Below are positions 1 to 3,977 of a DNA stretch of 21,969 nt, in pieces (the stretch's first letter is position 1; each line of letters starts with the position of its first letter). The stretch covers positions 1 to 21,969 of the IMG/VR virus record IMGVR_UViG_3300028299_000002; one strand, given 5' to 3'. The notes beneath the pieces were generated by a model that saw only the letters and a list, made by a program, of their open reading frames with translations, was not told the DNA's origin and did no database searches. Made by a program: the position numbers and the translations under genes. This DNA is from a virus.

Positions 1-200
1 TTGCGAAGTCCCCAATACGGCGGACTTGTGACACACATATTGAATACACCGTCCGGTATTCTTGCTAATGTTTCAAGAGAATCACCATGTAGTATTTTAT
101 CATGGAAAGAAGATGCCAGCGAACCATTGTCTTGAGATAACGGCTTGAGCTGTTCTCCGTTTTTAGGTTTTTTGGTTATATATGGTGCTTGCTGTTCCAT
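1..200 (-). CDS. N4/N6 DNA methyltransferase, N-terminal part (runs off window edge)
   Basis: Hand translation from ATG 200: MEQQAPYITKKPKNGEQLKPLSQDNGSLASSFHDKILHGDSLETLARIPDGVFNMCVTSPPYWGLR. It has the GDS and motif IV SPPY pattern of beta-class MTases. The start lies in the loop of attC-like site 1. Confidence 0.9.
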   Translation of the reverse strand, partial: MEQQAPYITKKPKNGEQLKPLSQDNGSLASSFHDKILHGDSLETLARIPDGVFNMCVTSPPYWGLR

Positions 201-1157: not shown

Positions 1158-1367
1158 TCAGAGCGGATTTTGCAACAATTCCCATATTTTTTGAGTACTT
1201 ATTTGTACCGCATTGAGTTGCGGTTTTTTATTATCAGTATCGGCGGTAAATTTTACAAGACAGGCAATTTTACGTTCACCCAACATTTTCCCTAAATTAA
1301 AAATATCGTCATCGTTTTCGGGTACAAAAACAATATCATTCTCTTTTTCATTACACGTTACTTTCAT
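1158..1367 (-). CDS. hypothetical protein (cassette cargo)
   Basis: ORF 1158..1427 in the track; ATG 1367 (MKVTCNEK) follows a purine-rich leader and is the more likely start. Confidence 0.6.
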   Translation of the reverse strand: MKVTCNEKENDIVFVPENDDDIFNLGKMLGERKIACLVKFTADTDNKKPQLNAVQISTQKIWELLQNPL

Positions 1368-1404
1368 CTTTTTCTCTCTTTCTGCTCTGACCAGCCCTTC
1401 GGGT

Positions 1405-1493
1405 ACAGAACCAGCAGATTGAGCCAATGCTTAGAGCACTGGCATGGTTAATATTTTTGATTGTTTTTGCATGGCTCATCTTTATCGTTCTAT
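1405..1493 (+). repeat. attC-like site 3
   Basis: R'' ACAGAAC, CAGCA, GAT[T]GAGCCA[A]TGC ... GCATGGCTCATC, TTTATC, R' GTTCTAT. TACAGAAC complements GTTCTGTA at 1150. Confidence 0.85.
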
Positions 1494-3058
1494 TCGTCAT
1501 CCCGCCCAAGATTCTTGATGGCTTGCATTATCGGTAAAACGACCTGCGGAACTATCGCATTTCCTAAACATTTAAGTCTGTCCACCCGCTTGGGTATCCC
1601 ATGAGCCACTCGTGGAACTCCATTTTCCCAATCATCATCCCAATTAATTAAAACAGGATTGGCATTTCCCCAGCAATATCTCTTCCACATCTCCTGGCTG
1701 TGCTGTGCCAAAAGTCGTGACAGTGTTTGCACAATGTCTGTATATTTTTTTGTTCGTTGTTTGTTATGTCTTGGTCTATATGGTGCGCCTGTAGGCTCGT
1801 TGTTTTCCGACAAGCCTCGCACGTCTTTTTCAGGTGTTTCCTCGCTCGCCAACTGTAACCATGCTTGGTAAGATTTATCTTCTTTGAGTTTGCACAAGTA
1901 AGTGAGCAATATTTCCTTTTTAGAAACGTGTTGTAATCTTCTAGGCGTCCGTTGAATCTTTTTCTCGTTATTAAAATTCCACAATGCTGACAATATTTCA
2001 CGGGTGTCTTTTTTCTCTTTGCCATCGTTCATATCTCCTCCGTATATCACATTAGTAAATATACACTCATGGGATATAAATGTCAAGTCTATATTTCTGT
2101 CCAACCAGGAGGAAAACCCATTAATAGTTCCACCCACGTCGGGTTCAATTGGCCAGTTTGATGTGTCGATTTTTTCACTTCCTCCGCCAATATCTTTCCA
2201 CCCTTCCCGTTTGGCCTTGACCCAGGGGTTCCAGCTCTGGGTGTCGGCCACATTTTCACTATGTCGTTCAAGTTGTTTTGATAGCCCTCCCGATTTACTC
2301 TTTTTGCTTGGCCGCTCCGATAATCCCGGCTTTGCGGTGTTGGCATTAGTTTTACATATCTCGCCAGTCCTATCGAACCGTCCGTACCCTTCCCGTTTAT
2401 TTTCCGCAAAGTCCCCGTTTTGTTCACTTTGAACTTGTCGTTTTTTCCAATTATTCCCCCCGTGTCCGCATCGCTTTTCACGGGAGTTGGCAACAATCCA
2501 GACTCTGTTCCTCCGATGTCCTGCACCGACACCCGCAGCCGGTATAATAAACGATTGGCAGGAGTATCCGATAGAGTCCAGGTCAGCAAGCACGTCGTCG
2601 AGTGCCAATTTGACGATTCCAGCAACATTTTCGCCAATAACCCAAGCGGGCCGGGTTTCCGATATAACTCTAAGCATCTCCGGCCAGAGATAGCGGTCAT
2701 CTTCTTTGCTTTTTTGCTTCCCGGCAACGCTAAAAGGCTGGCAAGGGAATCCCCCTGTAATAAGGTCAACTGTTCCGCAGGTCTTTCCGTCATAGGTTGT
2801 GATGTCGTCATGTATTGACACTCCTCTAAAGTTTTTCTGTAATACTTTCTGGCAGTATGGGTCTTTTTCTACGAATGATACTATTTCCAGACTATCTCCC
2901 CAGCACCATTTAGCAGCCAAAGCAAATCCGCCTATCCCTGAAAATAAATCTAACATTCTGAAAGGGCGGGATGAAATAGAACCATTAGATTGAGCCAACG
3001 ACGAAAGCTGTTCCTTTTCCATCGTTTCCGCCCTTTCACTGGTTATAGTTTCATTCAT
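1490..3058 (-). CDS. dcm: C5 cytosine DNA methyltransferase, main (alpha) frame
   Basis: Motifs I DLFSGIGG, IV GGFPCQPFS, VI ENV, VIII HRRNRVWIV and X RLKCLGNAIVPQV. The ATG is inside attC-like site 4. Confidence 0.9.
   Translation of the reverse strand: MNETITSERAETMEKEQLSSLAQSNGSISSRPFRMLDLFSGIGGFALAAKWCWGDSLEIVSFVEKDPYCQKVLQKNFRGVSIHDDITTYDGKTCGTVDLITGGFPCQPFSVAGKQKSKEDDRYLWPEMLRVISETRPAWVIGENVAGIVKLALDDVLADLDSIGYSCQSFIIPAAGVGAGHRRNRVWIVANSREKRCGHGGNNWKKRQVQSEQNGDFAENKREGYGRFDRTGEICKTNANTAKPGLSERPSKKSKSGGLSKQLERHSENVADTQSWNPWVKAKREGWKDIGGGSEKIDTSNWPIEPDVGGTINGFSSWLDRNIDLTFISHECIFTNVIYGGDMNDGKEKKDTREILSALWNFNNEKKIQRTPRRLQHVSKKEILLTYLCKLKEDKSYQAWLQLASEETPEKDVRGLSENNEPTGAPYRPRHNKQRTKKYTDIVQTLSRLLAQHSQEMWKRYCWGNANPVLINWDDDWENGVPRVAHGIPKRVDRLKCLGNAIVPQVVLPIMQAIKNLGRDDE
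1648..2025 (-). CDS. HNH endonuclease nested in the dcm gene
   Basis: CQHC...YCSLTC zinc motifs and CEAC...AHHIDQDITNNEQKNIQTLCKHCH HNH motif; own GGAG SD and promoter. Confidence 0.85.
   Translation of the reverse strand: MAKRKKTPVKYCQHCGILITRKRFNGRLEDYNTFLKRKYCSLTCANSKKINLTKHGYSWRARKHLKKTCEACRKTTSLQAHHIDQDITNNEQKNIQTLCKHCHDFWHSTARRCGRDIAGEMPILF
2058..2086 (-). promoter_or_regulatory. sigma70-type promoter for the nested HNH gene
   Basis: TTGACA (2086-2081), 17 nt spacer, TATATT (2063-2058), directly after the stop of the alternative-frame ORF. Confidence 0.65.
2089..2811 (-). CDS. overlapping alternative-frame MTase polypeptide (PTP repeats + motif IX-like segment)
   Basis: Nested ORF with three PTP repeats (LLPTPVKSD, LMPTPQSRD, MWPTPRAG) and terminal LNPTWVELLMGFPPGWT, the motif IX-like block missing from the main frame. 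Confidence 0.75.
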   Translation of the reverse strand: MTTSQPMTERPAEQLTLLQGDSLASLLALPGSKKAKKMTAISGRRCLELYRKPGPLGLLAKMLLESSNWHSTTCLLTWTLSDTPANRLLYRLRVSVQDIGGTESGLLPTPVKSDADTGGIIGKNDKFKVNKTGTLRKINGKGTDGSIGLARYVKLMPTPQSRDYRSGQAKRVNREGYQNNLNDIVKMWPTPRAGTPGSRPNGKGGKILAEEVKKSTHQTGQLNPTWVELLMGFPPGWTEI

Positions 3059-3085
3059 CGTCGTGCCTCATCTTTGTCGTTATAC
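2976..3085 (+). repeat. attC-like site 4
   Basis: R'' ATAGAAC, CATTA, GAT[T]GAGCCA[A]CGACGA ... TCGTCGTGCCTCATC, TTTGTC, R' GTTATAC. AATAGAAC complements GTTCTATT at 1487. Confidence 0.85.
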
Positions 3086-3140
3086 GCTCGTCGCTGCGCT
3101 CCCGAGCGTATAATGGCGGGCGCCTGAGCGTCGTTTTGGC

Positions 3141-3266
3141 CTATATTGGTTTAAGATGTTTTATAATTTCTTCAAGTTGTCTAACCCTAATTTCTAAAGA
3201 TTCTATAAGTTGATTTAAATCTCCTATCTCGTTATAAATTTGTTGAATGGAATCTGAGTCACTCAT
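3141..3266 (-). CDS. small coiled-coil hypothetical protein
   Basis: MSDSDSIQQIYNEIGDLNQLIESLEIRVRQLEEIIKHLKPI, behind a GAGGA SD; heptad pattern. Confidence 0.55.
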   Translation of the reverse strand: MSDSDSIQQIYNEIGDLNQLIESLEIRVRQLEEIIKHLKPI

Positions 3267-3353
3267 TTTTTCCTCTTTTCTTTTAAGCGCCAAAACTCCA
3301 TCGGCACTTGTTTTTCGTGTTAAAATCATCTGTCAATTATCGCTTGCGACGAC

Positions 3354-3415
3354 GTATAACCAGCGCATGGAGCATGAATCATCTGCGATGATTGCTCATG
3401 CGCCCGCCATTAGAT
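3354..3415 (+). repeat. attC-like site 5 (short, 59-be size; core ATT instead of GTT)
   Basis: R'' GTATAAC, CAGCG, CAT[G]GAGCA-TGA-ATCATC, loop TGC, GATGAT-TGCTCATG, CGCCCGCC, ATTAGAT; 62 bp. GCGACGACGTATAAC complements GTTATACGCTCGTCGC at 3079 with one bulge. Confidence 0.8.
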
Positions 3416-3461
3416 GCCTCACAAGATTTTACTGTCAAGTGAGGCATCCGTTCACTGTGGT

Positions 3462-3977
3462 TTAGTGTAGTTTAAATGGACTTACGACAATTTCCGGTTC
3501 AAGATATACCGGGCGCGGTTCGTTTGTTTCAGGATCAATCATCATCAACCAAGTTGCAGAAGATGATGTTGGCATATATAGACCATTCGGATCGGCTTGC
3601 GGAATTACTTCTGGGAAAACACCAGACCAGTCTCGCCCAATCATTTTATCTGCTTCGACAATTTTCATTGGATTAGTATATTGTGCCGAAAAGGGAACGC
3701 CAAACCCAATACATTTACCGATAAACATGAGTTTGCCTTGATAGTCAGATTTTATATAGGCATAGCATACCAAATCCTCTTTATCACATAGTTCAAAAAC
3801 CATTTTCATTAGTTTCTTTTGTTGATAATTGACAAGATTTGGCAAACCGACCTGACGATTGATTTCATCAAGGATTTGATTTGTTTGCGCGGTTTGACGT
3901 GTTTCTGCGGTCGGTGTTGTTTCAAAACAAGCGAAAAGAAAAAGACATGCGAAAAGAATTACGATTAGTTTTTTCAT
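3462..3977 (-). CDS. putative lipoprotein
   Basis: MKK + hydrophobic stretch + LFAC lipobox; PQADPNGLY motif. Confidence 0.8.
   Translation of the reverse strand: MKKLIVILFACLFLFACFETTPTAETRQTAQTNQILDEINRQVGLPNLVNYQQKKLMKMVFELCDKEDLVCYAYIKSDYQGKLMFIGKCIGFGVPFSAQYTNPMKIVEADKMIGRDWSGVFPEVIPQADPNGLYMPTSSSATWLMMIDPETNEPRPVYLEPEIVVSPFKLH

Follow-up and report, generated by a model that had tools for sequence, protein, structure and literature searches.

The window analysed here is a stretch of 21,969 nt comprising positions 1 to 21,969 of the IMG/VR virus record IMGVR_UViG_3300028299_000002, and it contains a C5 DNA methyltransferase locus with three tightly packed open reading frames (ORFs): a long methyltransferase ORF, designated alpha, and, inside it, a second methyltransferase ORF, designated beta, and an ORF for a putative HNH endonuclease. 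All the features of this locus are on the minus strand, and coordinates are window positions. The alpha ORF (1490-3058) codes for a C5-methyltransferase of 522 amino acids (aa) and is uninterrupted by stops from the N-terminus to motif X. Its product matches Pfam DNA_methylase (6e-46) and TIGR00675 dcm (8.5e-36), and contains motifs I (FSGIGG, 2944-2927), IV (GFPCQPFS, 2752-2729), VI (GENV, 2635-2624) and VIII (HRRNRVWIV, 2518-2492), as well as motif X (LGNAIVPQ, 1544-1567), whose residues G499 and N500 are invariant in alignment A2. In the AlphaFold2 (AF2) model of alpha, the predicted local distance difference test score (pLDDT) is above 90 for residues 31-195 and 66-90 for residues 490-520, which include the motif X helix; it falls below 50 over most of residues 197-487 and below 40 over residues 197-328. 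Alpha is thus laid out as a catalytic core, a low-confidence loop of ca. 290 aa and motif X.

The beta ORF (2089-2811, 240 aa) is read in the +1 frame and is nested entirely within alpha. It codes for motifs with PTP repeats that resemble a target-recognition region and, at its C-terminus, for motif IX (ELLMGFPPGWT), reading LNPTWVELLMGFPPGWTEI up to the stop codon; it matches phrog_1008 'DNA methyltransferase' (1.7e-35). A tblastn search with beta identified matches in 78 phage records, and a nested +1 ORF ending in LMGFPPGW inside an alpha frame (PCQ…GNAV) was seen in ca. 75 of the 80 IMG/VR loci found with beta. In Paenibacillus phage Tadhana, the overlapping pair corresponds to the annotated genes gp54 (356 aa) and gp55 (234 aa). 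Modeling of alpha together with beta gave a complex score of 0.88, with 0.00 for the best of three controls, although this value may stem from the likeness of the pair to solved single-chain C5 methyltransferases and is to be read as likeness, not as binding; the mark applied to such models is attained by 58 of 80 solved complexes and 2 of 110 mismatched pairs. At least 80 % of contacts agreed between runs, with a partner pLDDT of at least 60, and alpha residues 494-504 (motif X) were placed in contact with beta residues 227-233 (motif IX).

This arrangement is built like the one demonstrated by experiment for M.EcoHK31I, in which beta is coded inside alpha in another frame (PMC2836561, PMC3404938), alpha has motifs I-VIII as well as X and motif IX is on beta (Lee, Kam & Shaw 1995, via PMC2836561 and PMC3404938), and activity requires both chains (PMC2836561, PMC3404938). 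The beta ORF of the window is also coded wholly within alpha in another frame, and its motifs are divided in the same way, with I-VIII and X on alpha and IX on beta. However, the target recognition domain (TRD) is assigned to alpha in M.EcoHK31I, whereas the conserved LLPTP, MPTP and WPTP of the window, which resemble target-recognition motifs, sit in beta, and the matching stretch of its alpha (residues 197-328) is predicted to be disordered, with a pLDDT below 40. The window gene also differs in carrying the HNH ORF. A sequence link to EcoHK31I was not established, as a tblastn search of plasmids with beta gave no E. coli or EcoHK31I match. Nested methylase genes may also occur in tandem, as seen in another viral contig, L016, with two alpha/beta pairs (1762-2631 and 2772-3743).

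The HNH ORF (1648-2025, 125 aa) begins 63 nt past the end of beta and in the same frame, +1 with respect to alpha. Its product has an N-terminal zinc ribbon with four cysteines (Cys4), followed by a beta-beta-alpha core of the HNH type that contains a second Cys4 site, and matches phrog_1271 HNH (6e-10); we retrieved 217 homologs with 57-79 % identity from a large protein collection. Residues C12, C15, C40, C44, C69, C72, C99, C102, H81, H82, N90, N94, H103 and H107 were invariant in 29 aligned homologs, and the AF2 model (pLDDT 85) has a beta-beta-alpha core formed by strands E78-82 and E95-99 and helix H100-112. With this metal core, the catalytic His/Asn/His residues and the zinc cysteines, the modeled product is an HNH (His-Me finger) protein and a putative nuclease. 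A PDB sequence search with the HNH profile returned a weak match to the IscB HNH alone (E = 0.008).

The HNH ORF is preceded by plausible expression signals. A candidate sigma-70-like promoter (TTGACA-17-TATATT, 2058-2086, with 11 of 12 matching positions) is situated between the beta stop and the HNH start, and a Shine-Dalgarno (SD) sequence (GGAGGAG, 2035-2041) lies 9 nt 5′ of the HNH ATG. A core resembling SD, with a length of 4 nt or more, was found in 38 of 66 homologous loci, and there is an ATG at the equivalent position in nearly all of them. Promoter-like sites matching at least 10 of 12 positions are located upstream of the HNH in 6 of 72 loci, versus 4 of 360 random windows. An alpha-frame ATG at 2032-2030 (MNDGKEKK…) also follows the SD sequence of the HNH ORF and could yield a separate peptide bearing motif X; this internal ATG is not conserved, being absent from the corresponding place in locus L020.

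The HNH ORF is flanked by two copies of a short segment that is coding in two frames. Copy 1 (2098-2148) reads LNPTWVELLMGFPPGWT in the beta frame, corresponding to the functional motif IX, and EPDVGGTINGFSSWLD in the alpha frame (2146-2099), corresponding to a degenerate lead-in to motif X. Copy 2 (1571-1621) reads GVPRVAHGIPKRVDRLK in the alpha frame, leading into motif X, and contains, at 1617-1573 of the +1 frame, what remains of motif IX, FHEWLMGYPSGWTDL, cut off from any long ORF. This stranded remnant, which after the HNH stop reads EFHEWLMGYPSGWTDLNV up to its own stop codon, trails the HNH stop in most homologous loci. At the DNA level, 18 of 26 bases match between the two copies, with a local score of 10 (shuffle mean 6.6, maximum 14). 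A recent tandem duplication was hence rejected at this level for the window, the copies being alike as motifs only. The original prediction, made from the letters of the window, had placed an HNH ORF with this promoter-like site and SD sequence wholly within an uninterrupted frame of 522 aa, and a dual-coding segment on both sides of it, and all of these features were found at the positions given above. It had also counted three overlapping genes, which holds in that beta and HNH are both nested in alpha, but not in that beta and HNH do not overlap each other.

Alignment with alleles free of HNH, which had been proposed as a check, mapped the insertion and the flanking duplication. In L078, an HNH-free locus, the dual-coded segment occurs once and reads AAEPDVGRVAHGIPARVDRLKCLGNAVVPQ in the alpha frame and QLNPTWVEWLMGFPPGWTDL in the beta frame. 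An HNH flanked by two copies of the segment is present in locus L129, whose catalytic domain shares 87 % identity with that of L078; the 5′ half and the beta reading (motif IX) are retained by the upstream copy, and the 3′ half and the alpha reading (RVDRLK-LGNAVVPQ) by the downstream copy. A further single-copy allele without HNH is found in L009. Relative to Tadhana, the extra DNA of the window spans ca. 2095-1679. The closest methylase to that of the window is from L028 (88 % aa identity in the catalytic domain) and has no HNH; the flanks of both genes share ca. 90-95 % nt identity and the whole middle region, comprising TRD and HNH, differs, so that in this alignment both methylase genes are mosaic.

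We evaluated the conservation of the reading frames across the HNH in a set of 80 IMG/VR loci, obtained by an alignment-based scan and containing 72 distinct HNH cores that were used for the frame counts; a scan of IMG/VR for the HNH with a pattern from a single protein gave no matches. The -1 frame of the HNH, which in the window is that of alpha, is free of stops in 72 out of 72 distinct cores, and the +1 frame is interrupted in 69 of the 72. When synonymous codons were shuffled within each HNH ORF, the -1 frame was expected to contain 4.2 stops on average, and its median probability of being open was 0.003. For the HNH of the window, 7.7 stops are expected and none of 2000 shuffles left the alpha frame open; the third frame contains 8 stops. 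The stop-free -1 stretch spans the whole HNH ORF in ca. 75 of the 80 loci and, in most of the 60 loci of the window type, it extends from the PCQ motif to motif X; in 22 other loci, which we designate L096-type, it corresponds to the beta frame and does not contain PCQ. A C5-methyltransferase catalytic domain is present upstream of the HNH in 82 of 86 loci, and the HNH is never in frame with it (offset +1 in 60 loci and +2 in 22). A natural control is provided by L176 (2471-2944, from a Rhizobiaceae contig), a free-standing HNH homolog whose -1 frame has at least 5 stops. Judging from these comparisons, the open -1 frame across the HNH family is under selection and not a product of chance.

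The alpha-frame reading of the inserted DNA (1679-2095, alpha residues ca. 322-460) is not present in alleles that lack the HNH (L028, Tadhana, L003 and others). Of the two readings of the HNH DNA, that of the HNH is more conserved than that of the host, with an aa entropy of 1.45 versus 2.17. Most wobble positions of the HNH are free, with the exception of those where a T would give rise to a stop in the alpha frame and of a few sites such as a conserved Trp in that frame. Strong purifying selection on the alpha-frame peptide was consequently rejected, since the constraint consists mainly of stop avoidance plus a few residues such as the conserved Trp. Moreover, the same DNA was modeled by AF2 with a pLDDT of 35-53 in the alpha frame and of 85 in the HNH frame, and the alpha-frame peptide of the insert matched neither a PHROG family nor, by tblastn, any cultured phage. 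Because of its low pLDDT, the free wobble positions and a constraint that is mainly stop avoidance, the host reading of the insert is, as modeled, a tolerated loop and not a domain.

Comparison of loci L101 and L102 indicates that the HNH is mobile together with its flanks. Their HNH proteins are 96 % identical, with catalytic domains that are only 44 % identical, and the DNA identity rises from ca. 40 % to ca. 92 % at the copy of motif IX and drops again past motif X. The common cassette, including the motif IX copy, the HNH and motif X, is ca. 550 nt long (about 2380-2930 in this comparison), and its high identity in methylase genes that are otherwise ca. 40 % identical is, from sequence comparison, indicative of mobility. 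Among the loci bearing HNH, mean similarity was 56 % for the HNH and 47 % for the catalytic domain (r = 0.52). On a tree of catalytic domains with 113 tips, the presence of HNH requires at least 8 changes, compared with about 30-37 in five shuffles, which suggests that the HNH was inherited mostly vertically, with several gains or losses.

Variants of this architecture are found within the family. In the 22 L096-type loci (e.g., L096) the cassette is situated one register over, in such a way that motif IX, the insert and motif X all belong to beta, and that alpha ends early. These relatives are arranged like M.AquI, a C5 methyltransferase of two chains, the second of which bears motifs IX-X (Karreman & de Waard 1990, via PMC3404938). 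The chains of M.AquI, however, are said to follow one another as consecutive pieces, with no nesting of one gene in the other over hundreds of codons, and they have no nuclease insert. In L125 (1481-2995) and L171 (Nitratireductor soli ZZ-1), beta and the HNH form a single ORF of 505 aa, in which a separate HNH start is lacking, and the reading of alpha (560 aa) passes through all of it, with ca. 1500 nt open in two frames; an in-frame fusion of HNH to beta, again with no HNH start, apparently occurs also in L134, L146, L152 and L159. In Staphylococcus phage CUB-EPI_14, gp45 (L164, 833-2638) is a single-chain C5 methylase of 601 aa, with an HNH homolog in the +1 frame upstream of motif IX that is not annotated; the host frame is open even though this genome has a G+C content of 33 %. 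Homologs of the same geometry were also seen in contigs of Stenotrophomonas maltophilia, Ralstonia syzygii, Tianweitania and several metagenome-assembled genomes. The family of hidden HNH genes is thus widespread in environmental phages and in contigs from proteobacteria and other bacteria, the latter being probably prophages. Two further homologs were seen in other contexts: L165 (851-2507), from Komagataeibacter phage phiKX1, where an HNH homolog and an alpha-type frame of 549 aa with PCQ and motif X occupy a region annotated only as short hypothetical proteins, and the free-standing homolog of L176, which adjoins an N6-type methylase with an NPPF motif.

We propose that this locus codes for a nested alpha/beta methylase with a mobile HNH cassette that is translated through, with no splicing, and consider this interpretation probable (ca. 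0.8). The enzyme would be a two-subunit C5 DNA methyltransferase built like M.EcoHK31I, in which beta would bring the target-recognition-like region and motif IX. The HNH gene lies directly behind the beta stop and between two copies of the segment that holds motif IX and the lead-in to motif X, with the upstream copy completing beta and the downstream copy carrying alpha onward. Translation of alpha would continue across the HNH gene, in the -1 frame of the latter, and would generate a long and mostly disordered loop tethering the motif X helix to the catalytic core; the methylase would thereby survive the insertion with splicing neither of RNA nor of protein. The HNH protein would act as a nuclease whose target is probably the uninterrupted, single-copy segment, and the cassette (motif IX copy, HNH and motif X) would behave as a homing-type mobile element, presumably transferred by homing between diverged methylase genes.

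Several observations weigh against this interpretation. The HNH ORF scores 18.5 bits with Pfam HNH, under the gathering cutoff of 21.4, and a Foldseek search of PDB with its model retrieved no match at E <= 0.001, although the weak top rows were HNH nucleases (T5 SciA, Cas9 HNH, McrA and Cap5). The promoter-like site is not kept throughout the family, being confined to the closest relatives of the window. We infer the translation of alpha through the insert, as well as that of beta and of the HNH. Also, there are alleles with two copies of the segment and no HNH (Tadhana, L003, L012, L017 and L028), which may have lost the HNH or may predate its arrival, so that the insertion is not necessarily the source of the duplication. 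Finally, the clade-wise presence of the HNH and the intact appearance of all its copies would fit a useful nuclease that is retained, and not only a purely selfish element.

This last point leads to an alternative in which the HNH is not selfish but a working partner of the methylase, possibly a restriction-like or anti-host nuclease with expression and targeting coupled to the methylase, and nesting is a device for regulation and linkage. It is consistent with the stable association of both genes (a methyltransferase in 82 of 86 loci, with the HNH mostly distributed by clades), with the retention of catalytic and zinc residues by all 72 cores, none of which is decayed, and with the fusion of the HNH to the motif IX end of beta (in L125/L171 and apparently in L134, L146, L152 and L159), which would place a nuclease on the target-recognition subunit. 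Nevertheless, close methylase relatives lack the HNH (window versus L028, L129 versus L078), the cassette is ca. 92 % identical between unrelated methylases, and HNHs are on average more similar than their hosts (56 % versus 47 %; r = 0.52). Patchiness among related methylases, a common cassette and a higher similarity of the element than of its hosts are also the marks reported for the ShiLan domain (PMC9957025), which is discussed below. We therefore regard a role of the HNH as a methylase partner as rather unlikely. Somewhat less doubtful, albeit still tentative, is the idea that the cassette is an obligately dual-coded mobile module: its -1 frame would supply the host enzyme with functional parts, the linker and the motif X helix (in one register also motif IX), each transfer would swap the C-terminus of the methylase besides adding a parasite, and the capture of the HNH by beta in some lineages would give rise to a methylase-guided nuclease. 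If so, beta-HNH fusions would be a route from a homing element to a restriction-like enzyme.

Two other explanations dispense with the translation of alpha through the insert. In one of them, the motif X helix is made separately, for instance from the ATG at 2032-2030, or the pieces are joined by ribosomal frameshifting. The position of this alpha-frame ATG behind the same SD sequence would allow it, and the location of motif X on the beta frame in 22 relatives shows that its attachment is flexible. However, practically all loci have a frame that is open from the catalytic core, via copy 1 and the insert, to motif X, the internal ATG lacks conservation, and the window type would need two frameshifts to produce one chain; we thus deem this explanation very improbable. 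In the other, a self-splicing intron of group I (or II) carries the HNH ORF and alpha is restored at the RNA level, which can practically be dismissed: HNH genes often ride in phage group I introns, and the start of the insert resembles the sequence 3′ of it, as noted for ShiLan (PMC11855218), but an Rfam scan of 1300-3300 gave no match even at E <= 1, the insert sits in coding DNA used in two frames, and an intron gives no reason for keeping open a host frame that is free of stops in 72 of 72 loci, in contrast to the free-standing homolog, where it is closed. On these grounds a group I intron was rejected, as was an intein, because the HNH is read in the +1 frame and the in-frame peptide, which matches no family, is modeled with low confidence as disordered or helical.

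The proposal of an endonuclease that invaded the methylase gene by means of neither an intron nor an intein, already advanced in the original prediction, is therefore supported by the open host frame (with no stops across the insert in any of the 72 distinct loci, the check that had been suggested), the lack of an Rfam match, the out-of-frame HNH, the cassette common to L101 and L102, and the absence of HNH from the closest methylase, L028. Its further claim, that a duplication allowed one copy of the segment to end beta and the other to serve motif X, agrees with the alignment of L078 and L129, with the caveat of the two-copy alleles that have no HNH.

The read-through methylase with an out-of-frame HNH resembles the ShiLan domain, an insertion in actinophage methylases that has no in-frame stop and no features of introns or inteins, with an HNH coded in another frame, an in-frame loop of poor structure and a repeat between the start of the insert and the downstream flank (Arsenault, Gosselin & Gogarten 2025, PMC11855218), and whose disjunct distribution was shown earlier (2023, PMC9957025). 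As in ShiLan, the insertion in the phage methylase of the window type adds no in-frame stop, a shifted frame codes for a zinc-finger HNH, and there is no recognisable intron or intein signature. The in-frame reading is poorly structured in both elements, the start of the insert resembles the sequence past the insertion site in both, and here, too, the distribution is disjunct and the element is more alike than its hosts. The differences concern the size of the HNH (125 aa here versus 195 aa), its frame (+1 versus the third frame, although 22 relatives of the window HNH do use the third frame) and its start (an ATG with SD and a promoter-like site versus a GTG with no ribosome binding site). 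Additionally, the host is here a nested alpha/beta pair with the HNH in the frame of beta, motifs IX and X are part of the cassette, the HNH is fused to beta in some relatives, and the family is spread across environmental phages and bacterial contigs. Homology to ShiLan was not found: a tblastn search with the window HNH matched 8 phage records, none of them from Mycobacterium, and the in-frame peptide had no matches. The window element is thus of the same kind as ShiLan but belongs to a separate family.

Free-standing homing endonucleases of phages, such as T4 mobE and the seg genes, also split or invade genes with no need of introns (PMC2790892, PMC2988022). They share with the window element a small HNH gene with its own translation signals, the co-transfer of flanking host sequence and a patchy presence. 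Nevertheless, they lie between genes or split the host into two ORFs, whereas here the host ORF remains whole by read-through in another frame. Both ingredients of the locus have therefore been published, namely the nested alpha/beta pair (M.EcoHK31I) and the out-of-frame HNH in a read-through methylase insertion (ShiLan, 2025), and the main additions made here are the statistics on frame maintenance and the case of cassette transfer.

If our interpretation is correct, a single stretch of DNA codes for three proteins, with strong comparative proof that selection keeps the passenger frame open. The ShiLan-like strategy would then be general and extend beyond actinophages to environmental phages and to bacterial contigs (probably prophages) of many phyla. 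Besides introns and inteins, it would represent a third lifestyle for a homing endonuclease within a gene, where the host tolerates a junk loop. It would also affect annotation, because gene callers report only the long methylase ORF, and nucleases and beta subunits stay unannotated, as in gp45 of CUB-EPI_14.

The G+C content of the methylase gene (1490-3058) is 0.46-0.48, with 0.41 in the HNH part, compared to 0.38 for the whole window; together with the mosaic alignment to L028, this contrast suggests a recent acquisition of the methylase modules. Other methyltransferase sequences are found nearby, with an adjoining gene at 256-1110 that matches Pfam N6_N4_Mtase (6e-32) and a fragment of an SPPY-type methyltransferase at the start of the window (3-200).

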